DNA of 64,000 bases from Gammaproteobacteria bacterium (GTDB taxonomy: Bacteria > Pseudomonadota > Gammaproteobacteria > Thiohalospirales > Thiohalospiraceae), in the NCBI GenBank assembly GCA_024277595.1, contig JAJRUV010000090.1, forward strand, positions 547 through 64,546, written 5' to 3'. Below are positions 4,044-61,289 of this stretch, in pieces. The notes below the pieces were generated by a model that was given only the letters and a program-made list of their open reading frames with translations, was not told where the DNA came from and ran no database searches. How positions within the stretch are numbered: the first letter of the stretch is position 1; each line of letters begins with the position of its first letter. The position numbers were made by a program, and so were the translations under genes.

Positions 4044-4240
4044 TGCTTAAGTGCTCCATTAGTGACTGTCGATCACGGATAGGTAATTAGGCCACAGTTA
4101 ATCTTGTAGATGCAAGCAGCCAAGAGTGGTGGTGTAGTGATATCCTCTATTGAGTTGGCTCATAGGGTTTTAAGCTCCAGTGTGGTATGTTACTAAAGCG
4201 GGTTCTGCAGGGGTGTTGGACAAAAAATATAAAATCAGGG

Positions 4241-4392
4241 GTAACTATTCAGCATAGTTGAAAATAAACAAGTAACTGTTCAGATTGTCCCTGAAATTTG
4301 TCAGTTCAAGGCGAAAAATGTGAGTTTACACGGGTAAATGATCATTTTTTAACGCAGGAATAGCAGACTTCAGGGGTGAGCTGAATAATTAC
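4241..4392 (+). mobile_element. MITE copy A, long form (152 bp)
   Basis: GTAACTATTCAGC...GCTGAATAATTAC termini. About 90% identical to copies at 24782 and 47221. The flanking 8-mer AAATCAGG is repeated (4232-4239 and 4393-4400), with one extra G at the left junction. Confidence 0.9.
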
Positions 4393-4618
4393 AAATCAGG
4401 ATTTGTTTACCGGGGATCAGCCAGGTTCACGTTATCGTAGCAAGTGCGGTGGGAAAGAAAGTGCAAATTTTCACGGTTTTGAGATGCATGGCGGGATTGC
4501 ACAGCAGAACCCTGCAAGGGGGATTTGAACCTCTATCCTGCCAGTGGAGCAGGTTGTCTTTAAATCCGGCAGGTCCCGGTGTTCTCGATTAACCAGAGTG
4601 ATACAACCCTCTCAGCCC

Positions 4619-6103
4619 ATGGCGAGTGATAACTTTACTACCAGGGCGTGGCGAAACCTCCGTATCCCTATCGGGTACAAACTGGCTATCGCTATCACCC
4701 TGTTGATAACCTCGGCAATGTTGTTGCTTGGACTGCTGCTCATTGATCGGCAAGGGGTACTGTTGCGCGCAGATATCGCCCGGTTTGGTCTCACGGTGGC
4801 TAACCAGGTAGCCGATTCTGCCAAAGAGCTGGTGCTGGCCAAGGATGAGCTTGGCCTCAAAGTGCTGGTTACCAATTTGACCCGGAATGAGAATATCAAT
4901 GGTACGGCAATCATCTCCGCCAAAGGCAATGTTCTGGCCAGATCCGGGCTGGTACCACCGGAAGAAGAGATTCCCCATACTCGCGTTGACAAGGGTTCCC
5001 TGGAAGTGGCTAATATCCACGAGATCGAATGGTATGCTTCTGAAGAGCAAAAATATCTGGTTAGTTTCGTCAGTCCCATCCATTTTCAGGATGTGATAGT
5101 GGGTTACAGTCTGGCAACTTTCAGCAGACAGTCGCTGGTACAGTCACGGGAGGAGTCGGTGCGGTTGGTTGTGACAATCATATTGACGATGATTCTGCTT
5201 GGTATTAGCGGGGCTATTATCCTGGGAAGGCGTATTGCTCAGCCGATCCAGCAGTTGATTAAGGCCAGTAGCGAGATCAAGGCTGGCAATTATGAATACC
5301 GGATTACTGAACAGCGCAGCGATGAGCTTGGTCAATTGATGGTCGCATTTAACGAGATGGCACAGGGATTACGAAAAAAAGTACAGGTAGAGCAGGCATT
5401 CTCCCGCTTTGTGCCGGAAAGTGTAGCGAAGCACATGCTCTCTAATCTTGAGCAGGTGAAGCTGGGAGGAGAGACAGTAACTGCCAGCGTGCTGTTTGCC
5501 GATATTGTTGGGTATACTTCGTTGTCTGAAAAACTCCCGGCGGCGAAAATTGCGGAGCTACTGAACGAGTATTTCAGTTACATAGCCGAGGCGGCGCGAT
5601 TATGTGGCGGGACGCTGGACAAATACGTGGGAGATTGCGCCATGATTCTCTTTGGAGTGCCTGAGCAGGATTCCAGACATGCTTTTCATGCCATCTATTT
5701 TGCCGTGTTGTTGAAAAATCTGATTGAACGGTTGAATACCCAACGCTTGTGGGTAGGTAAAATACCCATCCAGTTCAGCATCGGGGTCAATTGTGGTTCA
5801 ATGCTGGCGGGAACCATGGGGTCAAAAAACCGCATGCAGTATACGGTGCTGGGGGATGCGGTGAATCTCGCATCACGTTTGTCCGGGGTGGCTGAAGCGG
5901 GAGAGATCATAATCAGTGAGGAGATGCTGCAGCAACCGATGGTTGGTAATTATGTGGATGTGGGTGGTTACCAGTCTGTCGTGCTGCGGGGGAAAGATAA
6001 ACCCGTGGCAACTTATCGTGTGGATGATGTCGTGACAACACTTCACCAGCAAATGCAGGAACAGATTGATTCGCTGCTGTCGCGGCGGATGGCGGGGGAA
6101 TGA
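4619..6103 (+). CDS. Membrane-anchored HAMP + class III adenylate/guanylate cyclase
   Basis: The ORF opens at GTG 4544. The first ATG (4619, MASDNF) precedes the TM segment. HAMP region (IAQPIQQLIKASSEIKAGNY...ELGQLMVAFNEMAQGL). Cyclase core VLFADIVGYTSLSE...KYVGDCAMILFG. The start codon is uncertain. Confidence 0.85.
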   Translation: MASDNFTTRAWRNLRIPIGYKLAIAITLLITSAMLLLGLLLIDRQGVLLRADIARFGLTVANQVADSAKELVLAKDELGLKVLVTNLTRNENINGTAIISAKGNVLARSGLVPPEEEIPHTRVDKGSLEVANIHEIEWYASEEQKYLVSFVSPIHFQDVIVGYSLATFSRQSLVQSREESVRLVVTIILTMILLGISGAIILGRRIAQPIQQLIKASSEIKAGNYEYRITEQRSDELGQLMVAFNEMAQGLRKKVQVEQAFSRFVPESVAKHMLSNLEQVKLGGETVTASVLFADIVGYTSLSEKLPAAKIAELLNEYFSYIAEAARLCGGTLDKYVGDCAMILFGVPEQDSRHAFHAIYFAVLLKNLIERLNTQRLWVGKIPIQFSIGVNCGSMLAGTMGSKNRMQYTVLGDAVNLASRLSGVAEAGEIIISEEMLQQPMVGNYVDVGGYQSVVLRGKDKPVATYRVDDVVTTLHQQMQEQIDSLLSRRMAGE

Positions 6104-7188
6104 AGTATTTTTTCCTTTTGCTACTGCTGCTTGCAAGCGGTTGTGCACACCTGCCTGATACGGGGACTATCAGCCTGATGCAGATTAATTTCTGGCTGGC
6201 GACAGGGGAGTACGGTAATGCGCTTGCTACGTTGCAGCGGCAGATTCAGTTGCATCCTGATGACGACTCCCTGCGCAATCTGCTGCAAACGATACAGCAA
6301 AGCGCCAACCGTTATGCCAGCAAGAAGATTACCATGGCCAACCGGTTGGCACAGAAAAACCGGTGGAACGAGGCGCTGCGGCAGATTGATGATGCGCGAA
6401 AACACTGGCCACAAAGTGCTGCGCTACGGGTGGCCCGGGACGTACTGGAAACTCGACGCCAACAGCGTATCGAGCAACTCCAGCTTGAATTGCTGTTGCA
6501 CGAAGGGGCGGCCCTGCTGGAGACTGCCCGCCAGCATCGCGAACTGGAGCTGGTGAATCCCGGCTATCTGTTTCTGGACTGGAATCTGCGCAAATACCAG
6601 GCCAAGAAGAGCACCGTTGCCAAAAAACTGCTTGAGGTGGGTATTCAGATGCAGAAGGAGGGAGATTTCCGGTTGGCCCGGCACTGTCTTGTTTTAGCCC
6701 AAGGGCTTGAAGACAGTCGGGAGGCAAGAGAGGCACTGCAGCGTCTGCCAAAGATAAAACAGGTCGAGGTAAAAGAGAGTAACGAGAGCAAAGAGATCCA
6801 GCCACAGCGCCCCTTGGCTCGGCGTGTTTCACGCAAGGCGGTGCAGCAACAGCGCATTGACCGCCTGTTGATTAAGTATGGGCAGGTTCGTGATCGCAAT
6901 GATCTGGTGGCTGCTCGTCGTATCATGTCGCAGATGCTGGAGATTAGCCCTGCGCATCCGCGGGTGAAGGAGTTGAATGCTGAGCAGGAGTTGCTTGTTC
7001 GGCAGTTTGTGCAGCGAAGCATTGCCTGGGGAGACGATCTCTACAGTCAGGAGCGGATCGAGGAAGCTGTCGAAGTATGGCAGGCCGCGTTACAGGTGGC
7101 GCCGTTAGACAAGGAGCTGCGAAACAAGCTGGATCGTGCGAAGACGGCGCTGAAATCGCTGCAGGAGCTTAAGCAGAATCCACGTTGA
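6100..7188 (+). CDS. Lipoprotein with TPR-like helical repeats
   Basis: Lipobox MKYFFLLLLLLASGC. ATGA overlap with the cyclase stop. Helical, Q/R/L-rich repeats. No specific family recognised. Confidence 0.7.
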   Translation: MKYFFLLLLLLASGCAHLPDTGTISLMQINFWLATGEYGNALATLQRQIQLHPDDDSLRNLLQTIQQSANRYASKKITMANRLAQKNRWNEALRQIDDARKHWPQSAALRVARDVLETRRQQRIEQLQLELLLHEGAALLETARQHRELELVNPGYLFLDWNLRKYQAKKSTVAKKLLEVGIQMQKEGDFRLARHCLVLAQGLEDSREAREALQRLPKIKQVEVKESNESKEIQPQRPLARRVSRKAVQQQRIDRLLIKYGQVRDRNDLVAARRIMSQMLEISPAHPRVKELNAEQELLVRQFVQRSIAWGDDLYSQERIEEAVEVWQAALQVAPLDKELRNKLDRAKTALKSLQELKQNPR

Positions 7189-8950
7189 GTTGCAGCCACA
7201 GCTCCAGCAGGGCAAGGTGCCACAGCTTGCTGCCCTTGATGCGGGTAAAATGCTGTTCGGGAGATGCCAGCAGTTTTTCCACATAGGCTGGCTCGAACAG
7301 CCCGCGATTGCGGCAGGCATCCGAGTGCAGGATCTCCTGCATGAATTCCAGGAACGGGCCGCGCAGGTATTTTAGCGCGGGCATGGGGAAATAACCCTTG
7401 GGACGGTCGATGACTGCGTCTGGCAGCAGGCCACGCGCAATAGTTTTAAGCGGGTATTTGCCACCGTCCTTCAGTTTGAGTTCGGGTGGCATCTGCAGGG
7501 CCAGCTCCACCAACTCATGATCCAGGAAGGGAACCCGGGCTTCCAGCCCCCAGGCCATGGTCATGTTATCCACCCGTTTTACCGGATCGTCCACGATCAG
7601 GGTGGTGACATCCAGGCGCAACACCTTGTCCATAAGGCTGTCTGCCCCCGGCACTGCCAGCAGCTCTGCTATTTTGTTCCGGGTGTAGTCCTCACCACGG
7701 TAGGCCGCAGTAACGATCTGCAGATACTCCTTATGGTCGCGATCAAAATAGTGTTTGGCAAATCGTTCCACCTCACTGCCATTCTGTTCCGCAGCCATTA
7801 GCGGATACCAGAAGTAGCCGCCAAACAGCTCATCTGCACCTTGACCACTCTGAACCACCTTGACCTGTCTGGATACCTGCTCGGCCAGCAGGTAGAAAGC
7901 GACGGCATCCTGTCCAACCATCGGCTCGGCCATGTTGGCTACGGCTTCAGGCAGTCGATCGAGAACCGTGTCATTAGGAATATGGATTTTGTGGTGACGG
8001 GTGTTGAAATGCTTTGCTACCTGATCGGAGTATTCGAACTCACTGCCACGTTCGGAGCCGATGTCCTCAAAGCCGATTGAGAAGGTAAGAATATCGTTGA
8101 CGCCAGTATCTGCAAGCAGCGCGACCAGCAGCGAGGAGTCAAGTCCTCCGGATAGCAGCACACCAACGGGAACATCTGCTACCACCAGGCGTTTGCCAAC
8201 GGCTTGTTGCAGTGATTGTTTTATGGCATCGCACCATTCTTTCTCAGTCCAGGGAGTGGCGGGGCGCCGGGCTTGCGGTTGCCAGTAGGTTCGCTTCAGT
8301 TCACGGCCGTCCGGGCCGATGGTCAGGGTGGTCGCCGGTGCGAGCCTGGATATTCCCTTCAGTATTGTACGCGGAGCCGGAATAACTCCGTGCAGTGCAA
8401 GTTGGTGATGCAAACCCACCGGGTCGATAGCGGTGTTTATATCACCGGTGGTGAGCAGCGCCTGTGTGTTGGAGGCAAAATAAAACCGGTTGCCGTTACG
8501 GCTGAAATAGAGCGGTTTAATACCCAGTCGATCCCGGGCCAGAAACAAGGTCTGATTATGTATGTCCCAGACAGCAAAAGCGAACATGCCGTGCAGGTAT
8601 TCCACGCACCGTTCACCCCAGGCTGCGTAGGCTTTAAGGATTGTTTCAGTGTCACTCCGGGAGAAGAACTCATGACCCATTTTCTGTAGCTGTTTGCGCA
8701 GAGCAGGGTAGTTGTAGATGGTTCCGTTGAAAACAACGACCAGTCCAGGGCCGTTGTCTATCATGGGCTGGTTGGCGTGTTTCGAGAGGTCGATGATTGC
8801 CAGCCGCTGGTGTCCAAGAGCAACGGGGCCGTCACTGAAGCTGCCCGAGTGATCAGGGCCGCGCTGTGCGAGCTTGTCCAGCATGCGATCCACGGTAGCC
8901 AGTTTCGGTGCACTGTTGTTCAGATGTAACGTTCCGCAAATACCACACAT
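7169..8950 (-). CDS. Asparagine synthase family (glutamine-hydrolysing) amidotransferase
   Basis: The ORF track extends to 9130, but the class-II amidotransferase N-terminus MCGICG (Cys2 nucleophile) sets the start at 8950. SGGLDSS PP-loop present. Whether it is AsnB proper or an NAGGN-type amidotransferase cannot be decided here. Confidence 0.88.
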   Translation of the reverse strand: MCGICGTLHLNNSAPKLATVDRMLDKLAQRGPDHSGSFSDGPVALGHQRLAIIDLSKHANQPMIDNGPGLVVVFNGTIYNYPALRKQLQKMGHEFFSRSDTETILKAYAAWGERCVEYLHGMFAFAVWDIHNQTLFLARDRLGIKPLYFSRNGNRFYFASNTQALLTTGDINTAIDPVGLHHQLALHGVIPAPRTILKGISRLAPATTLTIGPDGRELKRTYWQPQARRPATPWTEKEWCDAIKQSLQQAVGKRLVVADVPVGVLLSGGLDSSLLVALLADTGVNDILTFSIGFEDIGSERGSEFEYSDQVAKHFNTRHHKIHIPNDTVLDRLPEAVANMAEPMVGQDAVAFYLLAEQVSRQVKVVQSGQGADELFGGYFWYPLMAAEQNGSEVERFAKHYFDRDHKEYLQIVTAAYRGEDYTRNKIAELLAVPGADSLMDKVLRLDVTTLIVDDPVKRVDNMTMAWGLEARVPFLDHELVELALQMPPELKLKDGGKYPLKTIARGLLPDAVIDRPKGYFPMPALKYLRGPFLEFMQEILHSDACRNRGLFEPAYVEKLLASPEQHFTRIKGSKLWHLALLELWLQLNVDSA

Positions 8951-9208
8951 TGGAAAACCGGACTTCCTTTTGACGCTGTAGTTATTTTCTATCGCTATTC
9001 TCGCAGGAGGTAATGAATTATTCCAGTACTTCTGCTCAATCAGACTGATGGCGAATTGTTGAAAATTGGGATCTGTGTCGCAGATTACCCCGGACTTTCT
9101 GAACCTTCGTATGCCATTACTCAAGAACAAAACAACAAATACCGCTAATTAAAAAGCGGACAGCTGTCTTCCGGCACAAAACTAATACAGATCACGAAAA
9201 GGTTTTTT

Positions 9209-10840
9209 ATGAAAAAAATTCTGCCATTATTAATACCATTGGCCGTGCTGATCGCCGGCTGTGATGTCAAACTGCCTAGTGAGGGTACTGCACAGGAGGG
9301 TTTTAATGTCTCCGGCTTTGCTGCACCGCTATCTGAATATGAGTACTCCCGGCTTGGTAATGAACAACAGTACCAGGTCGCCAACAAGTTACTGGGAAGC
9401 ATGTACCGGGGCATTGCAGTAGCCGATTTTTACGATATCTCTCAAGGTATGGACAGACTTGCTCTGAAAGAGGGAGAGCAGTTTCTCTCTTCGGTAGAAA
9501 CTGCTCTGTCCACTCCGCTGGACAGCGCTACCCGGGAGCACCTCAACACGCAGATTAGAGGCGATGCAGAGGCCGGTATTGAGGCGCGGTTCAGCTTCAC
9601 CTCCCGGCAGGTTCCCAAGCAACTGCCATTGGCGCAGATATACCAGTATCCTCTGAGCAAGGATTTTTTTGATCGCTGGATTGCCTGGCATCTTGCCAAC
9701 AATATCTTGTTTTCCCCGGCGGAGGAGATTGACAGCGTCAATGTCACTGACGTGCAAAAAGTTTATACCAATCTGGTTGAAGATCTGCGTAATAACAAAA
9801 CCATTCGGGAAATTATCAAGCGCCATCAGAATACGCAGGAAAACTGGCGCAGATTTCGTTCGCCGGAAGACAATACCCGGGAGATGATTGAAATCTATCT
9901 GGGGCTGTTTGATCGTGATGAAGATGTACCCCGCGCATCAATGGCTTGCAAGGAGTGGTATCTTACCGATGAAAATCAGGGCTATGAGCGGGTTCGCAAC
10001 GGTGAGCCAAATACAGAACCTCAGTTGGTTCTCGATAGTTATGTCACTACATGCGAAGATTTTTACGAGTTGATTGCACAGCACCCCCTGGTAATCGGCC
10101 GGGTAACAACAGTTCTGGTTGAATATTTTTTTGCCGGCCGCAGCAATGCAGATCGGCTGAAAATAGTGGAGTCAATTGTTACCAGCAATCCTGAAACCTT
10201 CCAGGATATTTTCAAGGGAATACTTTTTTCCCGTGAGTATCTGTTGAAAACCGAGCGGCCAAGATCATTTGAGGAGAATTTTCTGGGTTCGTCTCACCGG
10301 CTGGAGTGGAGGGCGCCCACGGATCTGTTTCAGGGTATGGTTTCCCGGCGGGGAGGGGCGTATCGAGCAAATATGACCGAGATGAGCTGGCCTGCCATGT
10401 CACTTAAACTGGGCAGGCTTTTTGGTGTTCCCATGGACTCGCTGAGTTTTGCCCATTACCACAAGGCATACCGGGAGTTGTTGCTTTTCAGCAGGGATCG
10501 CTGGCGCAAAGGACTGGGATTGATCTGGATAGATGAACCTGCCGAGGACGCCACTGCAGAAGAACTGGCGTTGTACGAAATGAGTCAGCAAAGATTTTCT
10601 GTTGTGGGAAATATGAGTGTCAATGATTTTATTGATTACCTGTTTTTAAGCGCGGCGATGCGCCGTGCGGATGCAGTTGAAAAAACCACCCTGACAACAA
10701 TTGCTCTTGATGTTGGTTTTGTGAGAAACAAAAATGGCAAGGATTTGGTCCGGGAAGACTACCATGATGATTTTGCCCGGTTGGTGTTTGATTATATTTC
10801 CAGACTTCCCGAGTCCTATTATTTCAAGGCGATTGACTGA
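9209..10840 (+). CDS. Lipoprotein of unknown function (possible DUF1800-like partner of DUF1501)
   Basis: Lipobox MKKILPLLIPLAVLIAGC. 543 aa. It lies directly upstream of a DUF1501 gene, a pairing typical of DUF1800/DUF1501. The family assignment rests on context only. Confidence 0.6.
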   Translation: MKKILPLLIPLAVLIAGCDVKLPSEGTAQEGFNVSGFAAPLSEYEYSRLGNEQQYQVANKLLGSMYRGIAVADFYDISQGMDRLALKEGEQFLSSVETALSTPLDSATREHLNTQIRGDAEAGIEARFSFTSRQVPKQLPLAQIYQYPLSKDFFDRWIAWHLANNILFSPAEEIDSVNVTDVQKVYTNLVEDLRNNKTIREIIKRHQNTQENWRRFRSPEDNTREMIEIYLGLFDRDEDVPRASMACKEWYLTDENQGYERVRNGEPNTEPQLVLDSYVTTCEDFYELIAQHPLVIGRVTTVLVEYFFAGRSNADRLKIVESIVTSNPETFQDIFKGILFSREYLLKTERPRSFEENFLGSSHRLEWRAPTDLFQGMVSRRGGAYRANMTEMSWPAMSLKLGRLFGVPMDSLSFAHYHKAYRELLLFSRDRWRKGLGLIWIDEPAEDATAEELALYEMSQQRFSVVGNMSVNDFIDYLFLSAAMRRADAVEKTTLTTIALDVGFVRNKNGKDLVREDYHDDFARLVFDYISRLPESYYFKAID

Positions 10841-10844
10841 GAGA

Positions 10845-12311: not shown

Positions 12312-12312
12312 C

Positions 12313-13299
12313 TCAGAGACACCAGAAATCGACCTCCTGGGCTTTGAGGAAATCGCGAGCCCGGCTTCCTTGCAGCATGGCCATGGTTGAAAGCATCCCG
12401 GCTTCCAGACAGGTATTGGCGATAACAGTGACAGCTCGTGGCGCATCCGGAACTGGCCAGCCAGTGGTTGGATCCAGGATATGACCGTAACGGATACCCT
12501 CTTTGAGCAGGTAGCGGCGTGCATCACCGCTGGTTGCCAATCCTCCTGTTGACAGATTCACTGCACCAATCTGATTGGTGCCAGTCGCTTGCGGATCGTC
12601 AACTCCTACTCCCCAGGGTTCTCCATCCGGTTGCGGACCCAGCGCGTACAGATCTCCACCGTAGTTGACAAGCACCCCTGTTTGCAGCTCTTTGAATATT
12701 AATTGAGCGGTTTGATCAACGGCATACTCCTTGCCAATTCCTCCCAGGTCAATTTCCATTCCCGGACGAAGAGTGATAACGGGTCTTTTCCATTCCACCT
12801 TGTCCCAGCCGAGCCGCGGCAGTATTGATGCTACCGCAGCCGGATCGGGAACGTTGGCACTACCATCAAATTTCCATACTTCGCGCAGCACTCCGGAGGT
12901 TATGTCAAACTTATGTTCGCTGAGCTGGTAGCATTGCCGGGAAAAGTCCAGCAGATTGGCGGTCTCTTCATCGACGGAAACCGGCGTTCCGCTACTGTGG
13001 TTGATCCGGTAAATACAGTTGTCCTGCCGGTAGCGGCTGAATTTCCGTTCAATGCGTTTGGCTTCGGCATAACCCAGTTGCAGCAGATCCTCCGCCAACG
13101 AGCGGTTATCGGTAGCGAGCAGTATTTCACATGGGCTGGCCATGGCCTGAAAGCAGCCACGCCAGTAGCCGGATTCTCTGGTTAGGACGGGGGACAAGAG
13201 TGTGTCCCCCCCAAGTCGCTGTAAAGGAACGATGAACAACAAGAGCGCCTTTTGAATATATGGCCATTCATATAGAAAACCCGGTTTGCTCTGTGTCAA
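12313..13299 (-). CDS. apbE: FAD:protein FMN transferase (ApbE family)
   Basis: 328 aa. Motifs AMASPCEILL, GGIGKEYAVD and HILDPTTGWP are characteristic of ApbE. Confidence 0.88.
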   Translation of the reverse strand: MTQSKPGFLYEWPYIQKALLLFIVPLQRLGGDTLLSPVLTRESGYWRGCFQAMASPCEILLATDNRSLAEDLLQLGYAEAKRIERKFSRYRQDNCIYRINHSSGTPVSVDEETANLLDFSRQCYQLSEHKFDITSGVLREVWKFDGSANVPDPAAVASILPRLGWDKVEWKRPVITLRPGMEIDLGGIGKEYAVDQTAQLIFKELQTGVLVNYGGDLYALGPQPDGEPWGVGVDDPQATGTNQIGAVNLSTGGLATSGDARRYLLKEGIRYGHILDPTTGWPVPDAPRAVTVIANTCLEAGMLSTMAMLQGSRARDFLKAQEVDFWCL

Positions 13300-13313
13300 T
13301 AATAACTATGATT

Positions 13314-13375
13314 GTAACTATTCAGCATAGCTGACAATGAGCAGGTAACTGTTCAGGTTACCCCTGAACAGTTAC
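13314..13375 (+). mobile_element. MITE copy B, 62-bp mini form
   Basis: GTAACTATTCAGC + 18-nt spacer + perfect palindrome GTAACTGTTCAGG-TTAC-CCTGAACAGTTAC. The flanking 8-mers CTATGATT and CTGCGATT match 6/8, a degraded TSD. It sits between the DUF3570 stop and the apbE start. Confidence 0.8.
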
Positions 13376-15717: not shown

Positions 15718-15773
15718 TTCAGGGGCAATCTTGAGTAGTTACTGCAATAATTTACAATTCGCTGAATAGTTAC
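15718..15773 (-). mobile_element. MITE fragment C (left arm only, reverse orientation)
   Basis: TTCAGGGGCAATCTTGAGTAGTTAC-N18-GCTGAATAGTTAC is the reverse complement of the left TIR, spacer, internal repeat and start of the core. No TSD. Confidence 0.7.
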
Positions 15774-23490: not shown

Positions 23491-23602
23491 AGTGAGTCGG
23501 CCCCGGGTAGTTGCGGTAGAAGGACAACGTCTTGCGTCCGGCGAAGGATACCGCAACACCCCCTCAGATGTCACCTGTGACGGGTACTTTCAAAGGATTT
23601 TC

Positions 23603-23671
23603 GTAACTATTCAGCATAGTTGAAAATGAGTATGTAACTGTTCAGATTTCAGGGGTGAGCTGAATAGTTAC
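23603..23671 (+). mobile_element. MITE copy D, 69-bp internal-deletion derivative with perfect 8-bp TSD
   Basis: Both TIRs are intact. The core hairpin is missing, with the junction at the shared GATT. GGATTTTC occurs at 23595-23602 and 23672-23679. Confidence 0.9.
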
Positions 23672-23700
23672 GGATTTTCCTGTTCGGGAATACCCCTGGT

Positions 23701-24561: not shown

Positions 24562-24598
24562 GATTACATTCCCTATATTTGCTGGGTATATGTTGATA

Positions 24599-24625
24599 TT
24601 AGCACTCTAATGGTGAGAGTGCTAA
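24599..24625 (-). promoter_or_regulatory. CIRCE element (HrcA operator) in the rpoH leader
   Basis: TTAGCACTC-TAATGGTGA-GAGTGCTAA is an exact match to both 9-nt arms of the CIRCE consensus with a 9-nt spacer. It lies 38 nt upstream of the rpoH ATG. Confidence 0.85.
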
Positions 24626-24664
24626 ACAGAACCAGAGTTCCCTGAACGACAAATCAATCATCTT

Positions 24665-24693
24665 TTATAAGGGAATATAGTCCGGATAAACAA
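24665..24693 (-). promoter_or_regulatory. Candidate sigma70 promoter of rpoH
   Basis: The minus strand reads TTGTTT-N17-TTATAA, about 40 nt upstream of CIRCE. This is a hexamer match only. Confidence 0.3.
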
Positions 24694-24703
24694 AAAAACA
24701 ATG

Positions 24704-24781
24704 GTAACTATTCAACTCACCCCTGATTTGCCCGATTATGGCGTCAAAAATGTTCATTTACACTTGTAAACTGCGCATTTT
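24704..24781 (-). mobile_element. MITE copy E1 (older, reverse orientation), left part, interrupted by E2
   Basis: GTAACTATTCAACTCACCCCTGATTTGCCCG... aligns at roughly 75-80% with the reverse complement of the right TIR plus half of the core. The alignment resumes at 24934 after copy E2. Confidence 0.8.
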
Positions 24782-24933
24782 GTAACTATTCAGCATAGTT
24801 GAAAATGAGTATGTAACTGTTCAGATTGCCCCTGAAATTTGTCAGTTCAAGGCGAAAAATGCAAGTTTACATGGGTAAATGACCATTTTTTAACGCAGAA
24901 ATGGCAGATTTCAGGGGTAAGCTGAATAATTAC
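24782..24933 (+). mobile_element. MITE copy E2, long form (152 bp), inserted into E1
   Basis: Full-length and high identity to copies A and H. The flanking 8-mers CGCATTTT (24774-24781) and CACATTTT (24934-24941) match 7/8. Confidence 0.9.
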
Positions 24934-24984
24934 CACATTTTTTCCTTGTCCTTGAACAAACCAGGAGCAATACCGAACAGTTAC
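24934..24984 (-). mobile_element. MITE copy E1, right part
   Basis: CACATTTTTTCCTTGTCCTTGAAC...CCGAACAGTTAC aligns with the rest of the reverse-oriented core and ends at the internal-repeat terminus CTGAACAGTTAC (short-form architecture). Confidence 0.65.
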
Positions 24985-25031
24985 AAACGGGTTGATATTT
25001 TTATAACCGGTGTGTGCGTACCATGCTCGGG

Positions 25032-25059
25032 TTGAAATCAATCCGGGTTGTCCTCATAT
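25032..25059 (+). promoter_or_regulatory. Sigma32-type heat-shock promoter upstream of hsp20
   Basis: TTGAAA-N14-CCTCATAT compares with the sigma32 consensus CTTGAAA-N13-15-CCCCATNT. It lies 44 nt upstream of the hsp20 ATG. Confidence 0.6.
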
Positions 25060-25102
25060 ATCACAGCAGGTTACTACATGAATATCATGAGGAGGAAATA
25101 CG

Positions 25103-27911: not shown

Positions 27912-28298
27912 ATGGCTGACTACTACCCCTACATAAAACATCTTCATGTCATCTGCGTGGCGATTTCAATTATGCTGTTTTTACTGCGCAGCATGTGGAC
28001 CTTCCAGGATTCTCTTATGTTGGCTTCTCCCTGGGCGCGGAGCGTACCCCACTATGTCGATACCACGCTGCTTGTCGCTGCAATTTTTCTTACTACAATT
28101 ATTCACCAATACCCATTACAGGCCTCTTGGTTAACGGCCAAGGTGGGTGGACTGTTGGCACACATTCTGTTTGGTCTGCTGTTTTTTCATTACAAAGGAA
28201 GCTGGGCCGTCAGGAAGGTGGCGCTGGCTCTTTCATTATTGGCTTTTGCCTATATCGTAGCGGTGGCATTGACACGCAATCCGTTTCTGTTTGGTTGA
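27912..28298 (+). CDS. SirB2-family membrane protein
   Basis: MADYYPYIKHLHVICVAISIMLFLLR... with four TM helices, typical of the SirB2 (invasion gene expression up-regulator SirB) family. Confidence 0.75.
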   Translation: MADYYPYIKHLHVICVAISIMLFLLRSMWTFQDSLMLASPWARSVPHYVDTTLLVAAIFLTTIIHQYPLQASWLTAKVGGLLAHILFGLLFFHYKGSWAVRKVALALSLLAFAYIVAVALTRNPFLFG

Positions 28299-28376: not shown

Positions 28377-28497
28377 GCAACTGTTCAGATTGCCCCTGAA
28401 ATTCGTCAGCTCAAGGCGAAAAATGTGAGTTTACACGGGTAAATGATCATTTTTTAACGCAGAAATGGCGGATTTCAGGGGTGAGCTGAATAGTTAC
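28377..28497 (+). mobile_element. MITE copy F, short form (~121 bp)
   Basis: It starts at the internal-repeat terminus GCAACTGTTCAG, has a full core and ends GCTGAATAGTTAC. Very high identity to copy H. No TSD detected. Confidence 0.85.
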
Positions 28498-35032: not shown

Positions 35033-35205
35033 ACTATTTTCTCATGTTACATACAGCGCTGTTTGGTTGTCTGCATCACAATAGCCAGTATTTACCGGGG
35101 ACCGCTCGATTTTATTTGCGGAATATGTACCCGAAAAACAATACAATGAAACTGAACGGGATCATTGTACCACGCACGACAGCGAAGAGAATCTGCTCTA
35201 CAAAA

Positions 35206-35249
35206 CCTGAACAGTTACATGCTCATTTTCAACTATGCTGAATAGTTAC
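35206..35249 (-). mobile_element. MITE fragment G (44 bp: left TIR + spacer + internal repeat, reverse orientation)
   Basis: CCTGAACAGTTAC-ATGCTCATTTTCAACTAT-GCTGAATAGTTAC is the reverse complement of the left arm of the long form. No TSD. Confidence 0.8.
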
Positions 35250-45676: not shown

Positions 45677-47215
45677 ATGATAGAAAACAGCTATATAAGA
45701 ACATTCTGTATTACCTCATTACTGTCTGGTCTGCTGGTGATGAACGGCTGCGCTACCAACCCGGTAACCGGCAAAAGCGAACTGCGGCTGGTCTCACAGA
45801 CGGAAGAGATCAAGATTGGGCAGAAAAGCTATCTCCCCACCCGGCAGTCGCAAGGCGGCGAGTATCGTCTTGATCCCGAACTCACCCGTTACGTTAATGA
45901 AGTGGGACAGAAACTGGCCAGGGTAAGTGATCGATCGGATCTGCCGTATGAATTTGTAGTCCTCAACAATTCGGTGCCCAATGCCTGGGCGCTACCTGGC
46001 GGCAAGATTGCGATCAACCGGGGATTGCTGCTGGAACTCGGCTCCGAGGCCGAGCTTGCGGCTGTACTTGGGCATGAGATCGTGCACGCGGCAGCCCGCC
46101 ATGGCGCACGTTCGATGGAACGAGGTATGCTGTTACAACTGGGGATAATGGCTGCCAGCGTAGCCACCGCCGGTGAAAAACATGCTGATTTGATGATGGG
46201 GGCAGCCGTTATCGGAAGCCAGTTGGCCAATACCAGATATGGCCGCAACGCCGAACTGGAGTCCGACAGATATGGCATGAAATATATGGCCCGGGCTGGC
46301 TATAACCCACAGGAAGCAGTGACGCTGCAGCAAACCTTTGTAAGGTTATCAAAGATGCGTGAAACCAACTGGCTGGAGGGGCTGTTCGCCTCTCACCCGC
46401 CATCGCAGGAACGGGTCGATGCCAACAGAAAATATGCCGCCACACTCCCCAAGGGGCTGAAAACAGGACGGCAGGAGTATCTGCAGCATATCGCCACCCT
46501 GAAATCCACCCAACAGGCCTATGCTGACTATGACGCTGGCCGCAAGGCGCTGTCTGAAGGCGATGCCGGTAGAGCGCTGACGCTGGCCAGGAAGGCGATC
46601 CGGCAGGAGAACCGGGAAGCACTGTATTATGGCCTGCAAGGGGAAGCCCTGCTGAAAATGGGGAACCCCGGGCAAGCAAAATCCCTGTTTGATGAGGCAA
46701 TCAGACGAAACGATGCCTATTTCGCCTTTTATCTGCAGCGCGGCCTGGCCAGGCAGAAAATGGCAGACCAGGCCGGCGCTCGTCAGGATCTCGAGCTAAG
46801 CGTGAAACTGCTGCCAACAGCAATAGCGCACTATACCCTCGGCACCATGGCGCTCAATGCACATAACGAAGAGAGCGCCATAACACACTACCGTGCGGCA
46901 GCCGCCTCTGGCTCCCCCCTGGGTCAGCAGGCTGCTATATCCCTCGCTACACTGGAACTGCCACGGAATCCAGATAAATATATCTCGGCACATGGCAAGC
47001 CGGACAATAAGGGCCGCCTCTTTGTCCAGGTAAGAAATCGTGCTCCGATTGCCGTTAGCCGGGTTGTGCTGGGCATCCAGTACCGTACCGGGGAAATGGA
47101 TAAAGTTCCCGTCCGTGACACCATTCCTGCCGGAAAAACAGTGACCCTGCGTCTGCCAAATCCGGGCGATAAAGTGCAACACATAAAGGTAGTTCGTGCT
47201 GCTCCCGCTCAATAA
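45677..47215 (+). CDS. M48-family zinc metalloprotease with TPR domain (lipoprotein)
   Basis: Lipobox LLVMNGC, HEIVHAAARH zinc motif, C-terminal TPR-like repeats. Confidence 0.85.
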   Translation: MIENSYIRTFCITSLLSGLLVMNGCATNPVTGKSELRLVSQTEEIKIGQKSYLPTRQSQGGEYRLDPELTRYVNEVGQKLARVSDRSDLPYEFVVLNNSVPNAWALPGGKIAINRGLLLELGSEAELAAVLGHEIVHAAARHGARSMERGMLLQLGIMAASVATAGEKHADLMMGAAVIGSQLANTRYGRNAELESDRYGMKYMARAGYNPQEAVTLQQTFVRLSKMRETNWLEGLFASHPPSQERVDANRKYAATLPKGLKTGRQEYLQHIATLKSTQQAYADYDAGRKALSEGDAGRALTLARKAIRQENREALYYGLQGEALLKMGNPGQAKSLFDEAIRRNDAYFAFYLQRGLARQKMADQAGARQDLELSVKLLPTAIAHYTLGTMALNAHNEESAITHYRAAAASGSPLGQQAAISLATLELPRNPDKYISAHGKPDNKGRLFVQVRNRAPIAVSRVVLGIQYRTGEMDKVPVRDTIPAGKTVTLRLPNPGDKVQHIKVVRAAPAQ

Positions 47216-47220
47216 TCGAT

Positions 47221-47371
47221 GTAACTATTCAGCATAGTTGAAAATGAGTATGTAACTGTTCAGATTGCCCCTGAAATTCGTCAATTCAAGGCGAAAATGT
47301 AAGTTTACACGGGTAAATGATCATTTTTTAACGCAGAAATGGCGGATTTCAGGGGTGAGCTGAATAGTTAC
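47221..47371 (+). mobile_element. MITE copy H, long form (151 bp), perfect 8-bp TSD
   Basis: GTAACTATTCAGC...GCTGAATAGTTAC. TAATCGAT occurs at 47213-47220 and 47372-47379. It fills the whole gap between two convergent genes. Confidence 0.95.
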
Positions 47372-48459
47372 TAATCGATCAGCGCCGCACTCTTTAACTG
47401 GGCAAACACCCTCATTTCCGGTTTCAAATGTAGTTTGACACAGGATTTTCGGGTGATCCGCGCCAGCAGCCGAGGGCCATCCCCGCTGGTATTGCAACGC
47501 AGCCGAACCAACACCTGGCTCGCAGATATATCACAGATATTCTCAACAACCGTTGGCCAGATATTGAGAATGCTGCTGTCACTGTTTTTTTCCAGATTGA
47601 TACTGACATCCCGCGCCGGAACATGAACCCTTACCGCACGCCCGGGATCCATGTCGAGCCGACTGACCCACACCCGTCCGCAACAGCCGTCAAGGGCTGT
47701 CAAATGATACTTGTCATCATGGAGAGCAATCTCGCACTCCAGTATCGCTCCAGCCTCATCACCCTGCTCCACTGACAGATCCAGGCGGGTGAGTACCCTT
47801 TGCAGCGAATCGGAGGCTCGCACCCTGCCCTCCTCCATCCACACCATATGGTCCGCCAGCCGTGCCACCTCTCTCAGTGAATGACTGACATAGATTACCG
47901 GGATGGAGAGCTCGCTATGCAGACGCTCCAGACAGGGAAAGATATCCCGTTTGCTGCGTTCATCCAGCGCCGACAGCGGCTCATCCATCAGCAGCAATCG
48001 CGGACTGGTCAACAGTGCCCGGGCGATGGCCACCCGCTGACGCTCGCCCCCGGACAGACGCGCAGCACCGCGCCCAAGCAAGCCGGACAATCCCGCCAGC
48101 GCCACGGCATCATCGAAGCTTACCTGACGCTGCCTGGCAGGAACACGTTTCATACCAAACTCAAGGTTACGCCGCACCGACAGATGGGGGAACAGGCTGG
48201 CCTCCTGAAACACATAGCCTACCGCACGGCGGTGAGTGGGCAGGTGAATGCCATTGGCATCATCCTGCCAGATCTCGTTATCAATTTGCAGAAACCCCGA
48301 GGCTCGCCGTTCCAGCCCCGCCAGGCAACGCAGCAGCGTGGTCTTGCCGGAACCGGAGTGACCAAACAGCGCAGTAACCCCTTTGCCCGGAGCCTGAAAT
48401 GCAACATCCAGGGAAAACTCACCCAGATCGGCAGTGAAACGAACCGTGAGTTCCCTCAC
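47371..48459 (-). CDS. modC: Molybdate ABC transporter ATP-binding protein
   Basis: GHSGSGKTT Walker A, LSGGERQR signature, C-terminal TOBE/Mop domain. The stop codon TAG uses the last base of the MITE. Confidence 0.92.
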
Positions 48460-54900: not shown

Positions 54901-55475
54901 CGGAAGAGCGCAAAAACTATCTGGACGCGCAAAACGATGATCTGATGGAGGCGCTTGCCACCTTGGAAAATGCTATCCACAAGATCGACCGGGAGACCCG
55001 CAGCCGCTTCCGGGATACTTTCGACAAGGTCAACAGCGGCTTCCAGGAGATGTTTCCACGCCTGTTTGGCGGCGGCAAGGCATCGCTCGAACTTGCCGGC
55101 GATGATCTGCTGGATACCGGAATAACCGTCATGGCCCACCCGCCGGGCAAGCGCAACAGCACCATCCACCTGCTGTCAGGAGGGGAAAAGGCCCTTACCG
55201 CCGTGGCGCTGGTATTTGCCATTTTTCATCTCAATCCGGCCCCTTTCTGCATGCTGGACGAGGTAGACGCCCCACTGGATGATGCCAATGTCGGCCGTTT
55301 TTGCGATCTGGTGCGCGAAATGTCAGACAAAACCCAGTTTATATTTGTTACTCACAACAAAATCACCATGGAACTGTCTCAGCAACTGAACGGCATCACG
55401 ATGAAAGAACCGGGAGTTTCACGCCTGGTCGCCGTGGATCTTGATGAAGCAGCCACTATGGCTATCAGTGCCTAA
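51969..55475 (+). CDS. smc: Chromosome segregation protein SMC
   Basis: Start at MRLSKIKLAGFKTF (RBS AGGGAG). GPNGCGKSN Walker A, long Q/E/R-rich coiled coils, hinge, LSGGEK signature, LDEVDAPLD Walker B. Confidence 0.95.
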   Translation: MRLSKIKLAGFKTFVDPTTIPFPSNLVCIVGPNGCGKSNVIDAVRWVMGESSAKQLRGDSMSDVIFNGSSTRKPVGQASIELVFDNSDGRLGGEYASYSEVAIKRVVSRDGASNYFLNGVRCRRRDITGIFLGTGLGPRSYAIIEQGTISRFIEAKPEEMRRFLEEAAGISRYKERRRETENRIRHTRENLDRLSDLREELGKQLARLKRQSQTAARYKNLKQEERLINGQLYALRWQRLDRQCGEQESCNRELETALEALIAKQRSNEAEVEKQRQLHSEGLETFNQIQSRFYSVGADIARLEQALQHTRERRQQQQQDLAKLEQAWQEADTHRESDQQTIERLQAELQQHEPDLTRTQQEEKQSAAALAAAEQAMHAWQQQWDEFNLRYAEPAQAAQVERTRLHSLEQQSSQLQNHIERLTRERSSLTPDAEQTDISRLQQELEQGEQQAATLQQNQTDLIAQLNTQREQNHELSSQLDTLRGRLQTQRGRQASLEALQQAALNQNQGKTGQWLTRQRLQDAGRLVEEIQVEKGWENAVGTVLGHTLEAVCIEGLGELSTALQELDGTLMLFDTAVQTSPPPTADNTLLAKVRAPWSLEPLLGSVHIAVDLPRALSLRNKLATHESVITPDGIWLGVNWLRVARSVDEKSGVLEREQELKQLANETARLAARVEQLHTEVTAGREQLKTLEQQRESQQRELNEISRRVAGRQARLSGARARLEQFQQRTRRIISELEELTRQASSSTEEQHTTHTRLNESLALMETLASQREQLTAEREKLQQTLQQRRDQARQNHEATHNVNLKLQTLRTELASTRQAIERIEQQRIQFSSRRDELQQALEQGNTPLEKMTAELEQILAKRSGIEQEMAEARRQVEAIEHWIRELDGTHNRIEQETGQMRSSVERARMSWQELKTRRQTQQEQLEEAGHNLTALFEEIPEQADEQEWQTRLASLEQKISRLGPINLAAIEEYQQSEERKNYLDAQNDDLMEALATLENAIHKIDRETRSRFRDTFDKVNSGFQEMFPRLFGGGKASLELAGDDLLDTGITVMAHPPGKRNSTIHLLSGGEKALTAVALVFAIFHLNPAPFCMLDEVDAPLDDANVGRFCDLVREMSDKTQFIFVTHNKITMELSQQLNGITMKEPGVSRLVAVDLDEAATMAISA

Positions 55476-55485
55476 GGAATAACAC

Positions 55486-58316
<2,831 letters not shown>

Positions 58317-58347
58317 TGTACCCTGTCTCCCGAAAGCCAACTGCCCC

Positions 58348-61140
58348 ATGAGCAGGCATAACCGTATTCGCATTAATGATATCCTCTATACGCTGTTGGT
58401 GCTGCTCTGCATTGCCATTGCATTATTGGTGGCAGGCGCCTTTGCGTGGCAGGATATACAGAAGAGTGACCGTCGCTTCCAGCAATTTGGGTATGACTAC
58501 GCCCGGCAGCTGTTACAAAAGGTAGAGCGCAGTAAGGCAGTCGTGGAAGGGATGGCCGCTTTAAGCCAAATCACCGGTGTTGAAAACCGCCAGGAACTGT
58601 CCCGTTATGCCAGCGAAATGAGTAAGCTGCACCCCTATGTTCATATGATTCAACTTTATGAACGAGTGGGGTATAACGAACTGGGATCATACGAGAAAAA
58701 GAGGAAAAGCGCCGGATTATCTGATTATTCCGTGCATGAACTTGGCATCGAACAACAACGGCAGCCCGTTGGCAAGCGCCTTTTTCACTTCCCGCTGGCG
58801 CTGATTCAACCGGATAAACCCGCTTTCACCAAACATCTCGGCTACGATATTTATTCCAGTCCAGAAGCACAAGAAGCTATCAAACAAGTTATCAATACCG
58901 GAAGAAGCGCCGCCAGCACTCCGGGTGAACTGATTGGGGGCGGATATGGAAGCACCCTGTTCAAACCGGTCTATTCCAGCAAGCTGGAAACCGGCACCGA
59001 ACAGGAACGGCTCGCTAAAACCGTCGCTATTGCTGCCGTTCAGCTGCACTTTGACAAACAGTTTTTCCCCCGTGACTCCCTGCCAGGATTAACAGTGCAA
59101 CTGACCTATGGCCACTCACGCGAAGACAGGGAGGCGCGTGGAGTCAAAGAGATATATCAACACACGGCATCACCCAACGATTCTACCATCAGCTGGTTTC
59201 CACAGCTCTCTTTTAACTCCACCATCCCCCTCGCAGGGAAAGAACTGAGGCTGTCACTGTCACGGCAGACCGGCTGGCAGGATTTGCGGCTGGGGATGAT
59301 TTTAATGTTCGTTGCCCTGATATCACTTGCCTTCTGGGCATTCCTGCGCCTCATCAAACGGCCACTTGCCTGGTATGGCTCGGAACAGTACCAGCATGAA
59401 GTTCTGTACCGGGCAAAAGAGCGCGCTGAAGTTACCCTGCACTCCATAGGTGACGGCGTAATTACCACCGACCTCAAGGGGAATGTCGACTATCTGAACC
59501 AGGTCGCTGAACAGATGACCGGCTGGCGTGACAAAGAGGCACATGGCCGGCCATTAAAAGAGGTCTTTAACGTAGTCAACGAGAACACGCGAGAATCCGA
59601 ACTGGGGAACCTGGACAACATTCTGAAAGATGGAGAGAAAATCAAAGTCACATCTTCTCCCGTTCTGCTGCAACGCCAGGGCGAGGAGTATGTCATTGAG
59701 AACACCATGGCACCCATCCGTCAGCGGGGCGGCAGCATTGTCGGTGCCGTGATTGTATTCCATGACGTCAGCCATGTGCGCAGCATGGCGCGGCAGCTCG
59801 CCTACCAGGCGACCCACGATTCACTCACCGGGCTGGTCAACCGGCGCGAATTCGAGCGGCAACTGGGACACGCCCTGCACAGTGCCAAATACCATGGCCG
59901 GCATCATGTACTCTGTTTCCTTGACCTCGATCAGTTCAAGGTAATTAATGACACCTGTGGCCACATTGCCGGCGACAAGCTGCTGAAACAGCTCGCCATT
60001 CTGATGGAACCCAAAGTCGGCGACGATGGCGTGCTGGCCCGGCTTGGCGGAGACGAATTCGGCGTACTGCTGTTCAACTGCCCTCTGGAACATGGCGTAA
60101 AAACGGCCCAGCAGATACGTCAGGTGGTTCGCAGCTACCGTTTTGTCTGGGAAGATAAAATCTTCGAAGTGGGCGTCAGCATCGGCCTGGTGCCATTCGA
60201 CGCCCAAAGCGGCGGGCTGCAGGAGATCATGCGCACTGCCGACTCCGCCTGCTACATAGCCAAAGATCAGGGCCGCAACCGGTTACATGTATATCAACCC
60301 GATGACAGCGCTCTTGCCCTGCGCCAGGGGGAGATGCAGTGGATCCACCGCATCAGCAAGGCATTTGACGAACGGCGCTTCTATCTGGCGCGTCAGTCTG
60401 TTCTTCCCCTGAGTTCCGAGGCAAGTAACCGGCCGCATTATGAAATACTACTGCGTATGCTTAGCGAAGATGGGAAGCACATCCTGCCCAGTGATTTCAT
60501 TCCCGCCGCGGAACGCTATGACATGATGCGGGATATAGACCGCTGGGTTATCAAAAGCTCTTTCGAGCTAATCCAGGGCCAGACCCATACGGCCTATGCC
60601 AACAACGGAGTCCCTCCCCTGTATAACATTAACCTGTCCGGGCACTCACTGAATGATGAAGCCTACCGTTTTATCATCGAGCAACTGAAGGAAACCGGAA
60701 TCGATCCCGGCGGAATCTGTTTTGAAATAACAGAAACCACCGCTATCGACAATCTTGGCTACGCTACCAATCTGATTCGACGGCTCAAGAAGCTGGGATG
60801 CCGGTTTGCACTGGATGACTTTGGCAGTGGCTTGAGTTCCTTCGGCTATTTGAAAATACTGCCTCTGGATTATCTGAAAATCGACGGCAGCTTCGTCCGT
60901 GACATGACCAGCGATCTCATCAGTCAGGCAATGGTGGAATCCATTCATCATATCGGTCACGTCATGGGACTTCAAACCATCGCCGAAGGGGTCGAAAACG
61001 AAATCATCCTGGCGAAAGTGCGCGAACTCGGCATCGATTATGCCCAGGGATATGCCATCAACGACCCCCAGCCGTGGGGAAACATGCCAATGATTGATCG
61101 GACAAACGGACAGTTTCAGAGGCCTGCCGGGTTGAGATAA
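58348..61140 (+). CDS. CHASE-like sensor / PAS / GGDEF / EAL c-di-GMP turnover protein
   Basis: TM-periplasmic domain-TM architecture, PAS (HSIGDGVITTD), intact GGDEF (RLGGDEFGVLL), EAL domain (EILLRM, DDFGSG, QGY). Start taken at MSRHNRIR; an upstream start at 58309 would overlap the ligA end. Confidence 0.88.
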   Translation: MSRHNRIRINDILYTLLVLLCIAIALLVAGAFAWQDIQKSDRRFQQFGYDYARQLLQKVERSKAVVEGMAALSQITGVENRQELSRYASEMSKLHPYVHMIQLYERVGYNELGSYEKKRKSAGLSDYSVHELGIEQQRQPVGKRLFHFPLALIQPDKPAFTKHLGYDIYSSPEAQEAIKQVINTGRSAASTPGELIGGGYGSTLFKPVYSSKLETGTEQERLAKTVAIAAVQLHFDKQFFPRDSLPGLTVQLTYGHSREDREARGVKEIYQHTASPNDSTISWFPQLSFNSTIPLAGKELRLSLSRQTGWQDLRLGMILMFVALISLAFWAFLRLIKRPLAWYGSEQYQHEVLYRAKERAEVTLHSIGDGVITTDLKGNVDYLNQVAEQMTGWRDKEAHGRPLKEVFNVVNENTRESELGNLDNILKDGEKIKVTSSPVLLQRQGEEYVIENTMAPIRQRGGSIVGAVIVFHDVSHVRSMARQLAYQATHDSLTGLVNRREFERQLGHALHSAKYHGRHHVLCFLDLDQFKVINDTCGHIAGDKLLKQLAILMEPKVGDDGVLARLGGDEFGVLLFNCPLEHGVKTAQQIRQVVRSYRFVWEDKIFEVGVSIGLVPFDAQSGGLQEIMRTADSACYIAKDQGRNRLHVYQPDDSALALRQGEMQWIHRISKAFDERRFYLARQSVLPLSSEASNRPHYEILLRMLSEDGKHILPSDFIPAAERYDMMRDIDRWVIKSSFELIQGQTHTAYANNGVPPLYNINLSGHSLNDEAYRFIIEQLKETGIDPGGICFEITETTAIDNLGYATNLIRRLKKLGCRFALDDFGSGLSSFGYLKILPLDYLKIDGSFVRDMTSDLISQAMVESIHHIGHVMGLQTIAEGVENEIILAKVRELGIDYAQGYAINDPQPWGNMPMIDRTNGQFQRPAGLR

Positions 61141-61141
61141 T

Positions 61142-61289
61142 TTACTCAGCGAGTAGCCAATATTGCCGGTAACTGCTCAGATTGCCCCTGACATTCGTCA
61201 GTTCAAGGCAAAAAACGGGAGTTTACATGTGTAAATGACCATTTTTTAACGCGAAAATGGCGGATTTCAGGGGTGAGCTGAGTAGTTAC
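61142..61289 (+). mobile_element. MITE copy I, long form with degraded left arm
   Basis: The core and right TIR are well conserved (...GGCGGATTTCAGGGGTGAGCTGAGTAGTTAC). The left arm is diverged (TTACTCAGCGAGTAGCC...). No TSD. Confidence 0.8.

Follow-up and report, generated by a model that had tools for sequence, protein, structure and literature searches.

Which process scattered copies of one short palindromic sequence through the gene gaps of a gammaproteobacterial genome segment? The segment, referred to throughout as the window, is a stretch of 64,000 nucleotides (64 kb) from a Gammaproteobacteria bacterium placed in the Thiohalospiraceae (assembly GCA_024277595.1, contig JAJRUV010000090.1, positions 547 to 64,546 of the forward strand), and all positions below are counted from its first letter. 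An earlier reading, made from the letters alone and called the sequence-only reading here, had proposed a non-autonomous transposable element and had excluded debris of the repetitive extragenic palindromic (REP) type. The element is indeed a genuine and recently active family of transposable elements of the miniature inverted-repeat type (MITEs). For the movement of its copies, an ISBst12-group DDE transposase (IS66 family) is very probably responsible; it would be supplied in trans by a full-length insertion sequence (IS) elsewhere.

Duplications, a nested copy and empty sites

When up to two mismatches are allowed, the terminal 13-mer of the element, GTAACTATTCAGC, is found 24 times in the window, compared with 1.14 times expected from shuffles. 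A single census resulted from two scans, blastn with the reference copy 47221-47371 as query and a whole-window covariance-model scan with filters off, the model having been built from 66 relatives. Both recovered all of the copies that the sequence-only reading had listed and none in addition (Table 1). Five of the copies are long, four are short derivatives, and the remaining one is interrupted by another copy; together they correspond to one insertion per ~6 kb. The copies measure 46-152 nt and are non-coding; their terminal inverted repeats are GTAACTATTCAGC and GCTGAATAGTTAC, and every copy starts with GTAAC. Full copies had been judged by eye to be roughly 90-95% identical, and blastn against the reference copy gave 90.8% and 94.1%. 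Gene calls likewise agree that every copy is intergenic, though two of them touch stop codons (47371-47373 and 61138-61140).

All facing end-like motifs situated 40-2000 nt apart were collected from the window and from fetched related loci, and 45 of the resulting 184 pairs displayed 8-nt flanks with at least 7 of 8 positions identical, as against 0 of 184 when the flanks were displaced by 8 nt. The duplications thus lie well beyond chance. The 43 duplicated 8-mers that were tabulated are of varied sequence, with an A+T content of 69%. Within the window, perfect duplications abut the 69-nt copy (GGATTTTC, 23595-23602 and 23672-23679) and the reference copy (TAATCGAT, 47213-47220 and 47372-47379). 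The sequence-only reading had counted a third, AAATCAGG, and all three are exact, but this last one is parted from the left end of its copy by an extra G. A further duplication, identical at 7 of 8 positions, encloses the copy 24782-24933, which lies within another copy (CGCATTTT at 24774-24781, CACATTTT at 24934-24941). When 24782-24941 is cut out, the reconstruction restores one coherent, reverse-oriented older copy; consequently the split copy, as earlier perceived, is real.

Empty orthologous sites, each with a single copy of the target sequence, were present in related contigs at three of the window loci. These contigs were found via homologues of the RpoH and ModC proteins of the window, have the same gene order and are 78-84% identical in the flanking DNA, and none of the fetched orthologous loci contains a MITE copy. 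Upstream of rpoH the relatives read ...AAAAAAACAATG^ATTGGCTG (ATTGG... to the right of ^), and the window has a 282-nt nested pair exactly at ^; the pair is missing from the orthologous site in four related contigs. Similarly, downstream of rpoH the relatives have one GGATCTTC, and the window has GGATTTTC, 69 nt of element and GGATTTTC again. At the junction of modC with an M48-peptidase gene, the two genes overlap tail to tail in the relative (L144, contig JAJRUX010000195.1) with a single CAATCAAT, and the same junction in the window reads TAATCGAT, 151 nt of element, TAATCGAT. The contig JAJRUX010000195.1 belongs to the metagenome-assembled genome (MAG) Dive96_bin10.247, which has the MITE elsewhere. 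The sequence-only reading had suggested a check for empty sites in related strains, and the outcome of this check is positive. An all-against-all comparison of the fetched metagenome loci gave no orthologous pair of a filled and an empty site.

These observations bear directly on the possibility that the copies are old immobile relics (solo ends and remnants of palindromes) which recombination or duplication, and not transposition, has spread in the manner of REP elements and bacterial interspersed mosaic elements (BIMEs). Such an origin would be in keeping with the truncation or internal deletion of four of the ten copies, with two long copies at which no target duplication is visible, and with a tblastn search of the window that found no transposase nearby. 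It is contradicted by the precise empty sites in the relatives, and the insertion of one copy into another, the many sites with perfect 8-bp duplications of unrelated sequence and the mutual identity of the window copies (90-94%, versus ~80% between the flanking genes and their nearest relatives) all speak against it as well. REP elements are moreover only 20-40 nt long and have no duplications. A relic origin is accordingly regarded as highly improbable, and the rejection of REP-like debris by the sequence-only reading is borne out.

Anatomy of the element and its IS66-type ends

The anatomy was established from an alignment of the long copies of the window and two MAGs, and then from one of 66 metagenome copies. 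The unit recurring across relatives is an imperfect palindrome of ~120 nt, GTAACTGTTCAG...CTGAATAGTTAC, with the right terminus GGTRAGCTGARTAGTTAC, and in most mobile copies it is preceded on the left by an additional arm of 21-51 nt, which opens with another, outer end repeat. Subfamilies differ in the interior of this arm, at least three variants being found inside the window, and in arm-bearing copies the target duplications adjoin the outer end. A nested-palindromic layout of 151-152 bp had been described earlier. This form exists, but in its 151-nt version the variable arm makes up the first 31 nt and the recurring unit is the ~120-nt palindrome; the "nested palindrome" is thus a palindromic core plus a variable arm. 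Duplications with 7/8 or 8/8 identity were observed for forms of 142, 151-152, 161-163, 172, 175 and 183 nt, and the bare forms of 121-124 nt also occur with 7/8 duplications. A doubled left end, recognised as a second end-like motif near the left end, is absent from the five full-length ISs examined. Most likely, the left arms arose from nested insertions such as that at 24704-24985, after which the outer end would have been used.

The 69-nt form at 23603 and a 59-nt form that belongs to another subfamily (L119) lack the same interior; the loss lies between two GATT repeats at the stem base, as would be expected if deletion had occurred across a hairpin. In different subfamilies, mini forms of 50-69 nt (23603-23671 in the window; L119:1496-1554; L075:10274-10323) have kept their ends and are flanked by perfect duplications, so that either such deletions are recurrent or the minimal forms are themselves mobile. 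At the right end of the short copy 13314-13375 (region 13345-13375) stands the inner left end in exact reverse complement, CCTGAACAGTTAC, in place of the usual GCTGAATAGTTAC; it looks as if the other arm had been copied by fold-back synthesis.

The ends of the element lead to its putative transposase. When metagenomes were scanned with the right end, 120 loci were returned, ~90 of which contain relatives of the window element at 65-97% identity; of the 34 loci without such a relative, many contain other MITE-sized elements that share the end but have unrelated interiors. A metagenome element of 1366 bp (L074) combines the same ends with an open reading frame (ORF) that matches PF03050 (DDE_Tnp_IS66) at E = 3.5e-47, and homologues of this ORF are 490 aa long and carry PF20042 and PF03050. 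An NN gap is present at L074:270-272, and the element is ~190 bp short of intact 1555-bp copies; its shortness reflects an assembly gap or a deletion and not a naturally short IS. The intact 1555-bp metagenomic IS was found at four independent insertions, all with perfect 8-bp duplications. It starts with GTAACTACTCAGCTCCC... and finishes with ...GGGTGAGCTGAGTAGTTAC, and the terminal 19 nt of its right end are those of the window copy 61169-61289 (19/19). The stop codon of the transposase (TGA; TAA in L030) falls inside the right repeat, which explains the G/A variation at that right-end position in the MITEs.

The closest relatives on annotated plasmids are single-ORF IS66-family elements, with 8-bp duplications in all four that were examined. 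An exact GTAACTATTCAGC (13/13 nt) opens both ISGst1 (Geobacillus) and a Paraburkholderia IS that lacks annotation; an IS of Bacillus thuringiensis starts with GTAACTACTCAGA and one of Acaryochloris with GTTACTGCCCAGG. In the left end of ISGst1 (L133:166-210), an inverted partial copy, GAGCTGAATA, follows 13 nt past the end repeat and gives a small hairpin. ISDge4 from Deinococcus, a member of the ISBst12 group for which transposition has been observed experimentally, has the ends GTGACTACTCAGCA and GTAACTGCTCAGCA and an 8-bp repeat (PMC12898284), and ends starting with GTAA together with 8-bp repeats are traits of the IS66 family (PMC11946415). The terminal 13-19 nt of the MITE match the ends of single-ORF ISBst12-group elements, namely ISGst1, ISDge4 and the 1555-bp metagenomic IS. 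The IS66 signature named in the sequence-only reading is thereby confirmed and, through these three elements and the PF03050 ORF of L074, narrowed to the single-ORF ISBst12 group; full-length IS66-type ISs with matching ends do exist, in other organisms.

A direct comparison with ISBst12-group ISs (ISBst12, ISGst1, ISDge4) shows that they share with the MITE the 8-bp target duplications and the end GTAACTAYTCAGC, which is exact in ISGst1 and reads GTAACTGCTCAGCA in ISDge4. The stop codon in the right repeat of the 1555-bp metagenomic IS and its relatives is likewise kept in the right end of the MITE, whereas ISGst1 does not have this feature. Conversely, these ISs are 1.4-1.6 kb long and encode a DDE transposase of 450-490 aa, whereas the window element is non-coding and 120-152 nt long; there is no likeness inside the ends, and the left side of the MITE has two direct copies of the end repeat.

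Other MITE-sized families with unrelated interiors have the same 18-nt right end, GGTGAGCTGAATAGTTAC, several of them with perfect 8-bp duplications. They include elements of ~318 bp (L017, L039, L050, L058, L059) and ~202 bp (L020, L040, L067), and further ones of 131 bp (L124:3988-4118) and 194 bp (L031:1495-1688). As several unrelated interiors share this end, ISBst12-type ends seem to have been captured repeatedly. An additional 170-nt element with the same ends (L116:790-959) has an interior of tandem short repeats, with CACAGTT units followed by TAACCSR / TAACTGG-like ones.

In principle, another transposase family that makes 8-bp duplications, for example IS1595, ISL3 or IS256, could move the element, the likeness to IS66 ends then being coincidental. 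Several IS families are known to generate duplications of this length, and the partner has not been seen in the source genome. Still, over its terminal 13-19 nt the element is identical to several bona fide members of the IS66 family, which come from four phyla (including the one in PMC12898284), and the right end keeps the Gly and stop codons of an IS66-type ORF, with TGA/TAA variation exactly there. A coincidence of this kind is therefore hardly credible.

Under the preferred reading, mobilisation by an ISBst12-group enzyme, a single-ORF transposase with PF20042 and PF03050 would recognise the ~13-19-nt ends GTAACTAYTCAGC...GGTRAGCTGARTAGTTAC, and the element would be cut or copied and then inserted into AT-rich sites by cuts staggered by 8 bp, repair of the stagger yielding the 8-bp duplication. 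The right end would be a relic of the right end of an IS, including the last Gly codon and the stop (GGG-TGA or GGG-TAA) inside the repeat, and the ~120-nt palindromic core would be family-specific cargo. The left arm with its own outer end repeat would stem from nested insertions, the outer end then coming into use, and the short forms from deletion across the hairpin between short direct repeats. The mobilisation in trans, the origin of the left arm and a partner IS in the source genome are inferred; the anatomy, the target duplications, the empty sites and the end identity to real ISs were observed directly.

A number of points weigh against this reading. No visible duplication flanks 4 of 13 long copies examined by eye. 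No transposase was detected in the window by tblastn with an IS66-type protein (best E = 1.2), as the sequence-only reading had stated, and no partner IS has been demonstrated for the source genome, of which the 64-kb window was searched, or for its MITE-bearing relative. Past the terminal ~19 nt the MITE is unlike every IS examined, and the ISs with the closest ends belong to other, more GC-rich organisms. In addition, trans-mobilisation of an IS66-family MITE was not found in the MITE and IS literature surveyed. Several loci were considered as partner IS and discarded: L060, L034, L106 and L124 are chance pairs of end-like motifs around ordinary genes, and L030 contains only a truncated transposase C-terminus.

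Numerous intergenic imperfect palindromes of 100-160 nt with terminal inverted repeats are familiar from Neisseria (Correia elements, or NEMIS) and enterobacteria (ERIC); they occur in size variants formed by internal deletion and form long hairpins when transcribed. The window element resembles them in being palindromic and intergenic, in its terminal inverted repeats and in its deletion variants. Its sequence is unrelated, however, and it duplicates 8 bp of varied sequence whereas Correia elements duplicate TA; their partner transposases are unknown or of other families, in contrast to the clear IS66-type partner class here. REP elements and BIMEs, which are associated with REP-associated tyrosine transposases (RAYTs), differ in being 20-40-nt palindromes without IS-type ends or duplication, whereas the window elements of 120-152 nt have both. 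A parallel in kind is provided by MITEPsy1/ISPsy2 and by Chunjie of Geobacter, which have IS-shared ends, duplications of IS length and many size variants, but belong to other IS families with other ends and duplication lengths (4 nt for MITEPsy1) (PMC3189936, PMC10969869). The MITEs described for Thiomargarita differ from the window element (10-bp repeat or TATA ends). In the MITE literature surveyed no MITE was tied to the IS66 family and no paper joined ISBst12 and MITEs; literature searches with the end sequences matched only unrelated primers, and there was no DNA match to the element in PLSDB plasmids or in viral contigs. The kind of element is thus well known, and this particular family, its ISBst12 link and its spread in marine metagenomes do not appear in the literature searched.

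Strand asymmetry of the hairpin core

Folded as RNA, the reference copy reaches -63.1 kcal/mol (z = -9.0) on the + strand versus -45.0 on the other strand. RNAalifold analysis of the 66-copy alignment, in which identity drops to ~65%, returned 35 pairs, 24 of them with compensatory changes. Of the pairing cells 94.4% were observed to pair as against 79.6% after shuffling, where none of 500 shuffles reached the observed value, and slid partners gave at most 52%. The wobble-type cells are distributed very unevenly, with 367 G·T on the top strand versus 51 A·C (wobble on the bottom strand), and 17 pair columns have an excess for the top strand versus 3 for the bottom strand. The mean folding energy is -54.9 kcal/mol for the top and -38.9 kcal/mol for the bottom strand, the top being the more stable in 65 of 66 copies, and the corresponding consensus energies are -35.2 and -8.8 kcal/mol. 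The same bias is evident in all 23 clusters when subfamily consensus sequences are compared (134 wobble-type pairs on the top versus 21 on the bottom strand), with G·T positions recurring across clusters and A·C positions being mostly singletons. The strand that is favoured corresponds in sense to the transposase gene of the IS, and the internal loops contain the conserved unpaired motifs CAAGGCG and UAACGC.

A strand-specific fold as a general requirement of IS66-type transposition, serving to join the two ends of one strand, was considered as the source of this bias and is weakened by eight other same-end MITEs in which the bias is absent. The asymmetry is consequently a trait of this core rather than of the transposition system. 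It may result from selection on a single-stranded form, or partly from shared ancestry and from a structure that was predicted on that very strand.

A possible reading is that the core functions in its own right as a single-stranded module (a small structured RNA or a hairpin of single-stranded DNA) which has acquired IS66-type ends and spreads with them, rather than being plain selfish debris. The fraction of paired cells and the 24 compensatory pairs among 35 across 66 copies would suit such a module, as would the strong asymmetry in wobble pairs and folding energy in all 23 subfamily clusters, its lack in other same-end families and the conserved loop motifs. Conversely, the orientation of copies relative to flanking genes shows no bias (15 sense, 13 antisense), and promoter and terminator scans of three copies performed no better than shuffles, with no such site in or beside the copies. 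Rfam 15 gave no window match at gathering thresholds, and a permissive Rfam scan gave only sub-threshold matches to generic long hairpins resembling plant miRNAs. The copies are related, so that part of the signal is inherited, and the structure was scored on the same strand on which it was predicted. On balance a functional module is a tentative and rather unlikely interpretation. A similarly guarded view is taken of the proposal that strand-specific selection has kept the ~120-nt core across diverged marine and hydrothermal subfamilies while it rides on IS66-type ends: it may be so, at well below even chances. The left arm was also tried as a promoter (TTGAAA-17-CAGATT); it failed the scan, and transcription from it would begin within the stem. 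Among the window copies, orientation follows no pattern with respect to the GC-skew switch described below.

Genomic setting and significance

The copies adjoin a varied set of genes, including htpX, typA, rpoH, degQ, tcdA, ccoG/ccoP, the M48 peptidase gene, modC, smc and cysZ (Table 1).

Table 1. Copies of the element in the window, with associated repeats and neighbouring genes
Feature	Coordinates	Core	Strand	Structure and setting
Full copy, 152 nt	4241-4392 (with flanks 4232..4400)	4272-4392	+	between divergent htpX and a HAMP/sensor-type gene
Repeated 8-mer AAATCAGG	4232-4239 and 4393-4400			extra G (4240) between left repeat and end
Short derivative, 62 nt	13314-13375		+	left arm and inner end repeat, perfect 13-bp fold-back stem GTAACTGTTCAGG-TTACC-CCTGAACAGTTAC; flanked by two minus-strand genes (unnamed ORF, apbE-like gene)
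Fragment, 56 nt	15718-15773		-	outer end, different left-arm variant, inner end, stem start; upstream of typA
Internally deleted copy, 69 nt	23603-23671 (with flanks 23595..23679)		+	reference positions 1-46 and 125-151
Older ~120-nt copy, first part	24704-24781		-	right end through centre; cut by copy 24782-24933
Full copy, 152 nt	24782-24933	24813-24933	+	inserted into older copy
Older copy, second part	24934-24985		-	terminates in inner end repeat ...CCGAACAGTTAC
Core copy, 121 nt	28377-28497	28377-28497	+	no recognisable left arm, no target duplication; between convergent sirB-like gene and tcdA
Left-end fragment, 46 nt	35204-35249		-	confined to outer end, arm and inner end; situated between ccoG and ccoP
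Reference copy, 151 nt	47221-47371 (with flanks 47213..47379)	47252-47371	+	between M48 peptidase gene (+) and modC (-)
Core copy with degenerate left arm	61169-61289 (arm 61138-61168)	61169-61289	+	right end GCTGAGTAGTTAC; arm of another subfamily, overlapping the TAA stop of a GGDEF-EAL gene; no visible target duplication

The 282-nt nested pair (region 24562-25084) is located in the gap that separates rpoH from a divergent HSP20-family gene, 143 nt upstream of the start codon of rpoH, and the rpoH promoter region of the relatives measures only ~260 nt. At the 47221 insertion, the left duplicate TAATCGAT provides the TAA stop of the M48 peptidase gene, and the stop of modC is now a TAG made of the 'TA' of the right duplicate and the last base of the MITE. 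Without the insertion the end of modC would read ...ALIDY*, and it is now ...ALID*; the ModC protein of a relative (P0243, 363 aa) is one residue longer. Insertions that adjoin core genes in this way, flanking rpoH on either side and lying at the stop codon of modC, may therefore affect expression.

At ~28.0 kb the GC skew switches sign, from +0.18 (26-28 kb) to -0.09 (28-30 kb) with a cumulative maximum at 28000, and gene orientation turns from mostly + to mostly -. This looks like a replication-terminus-type switch, and a search for an E. coli-like dif site found none. The copy 28377-28497 occupies exactly the gap at which the skew switches.

The nearest relatives of the source organism are MAGs and metagenome scaffolds, among them Gammaproteobacteria bacterium Dive96_bin10.247, with a ModC protein that is 86% identical; among named RpoH homologues, those with the best scores, at 67-71% identity, belong to Thiohalomonadaceae, Thiohalospira, Thioalkalispiraceae and Sulfurivermis. 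The insertions mark differences at strain level among uncultured hydrothermal Gammaproteobacteria. They also represent a dense and recently active MITE family tied to the ISBst12 group, whose transposition chemistry is poorly known, and short substrates with defined ends could aid the biochemistry of its transposases. Conservation of one 13-nt end extends from Geobacillus and Deinococcus to Proteobacteria, and several unrelated MITE interiors use this end. If the core is a functional module, it would constitute a mobile structured-RNA or hairpin gene with a fold specific to this MITE family, and if the strand conservation of the hairpin reflects real selection, the family would be a case, open to testing, in which a structured element spreads by transposition.

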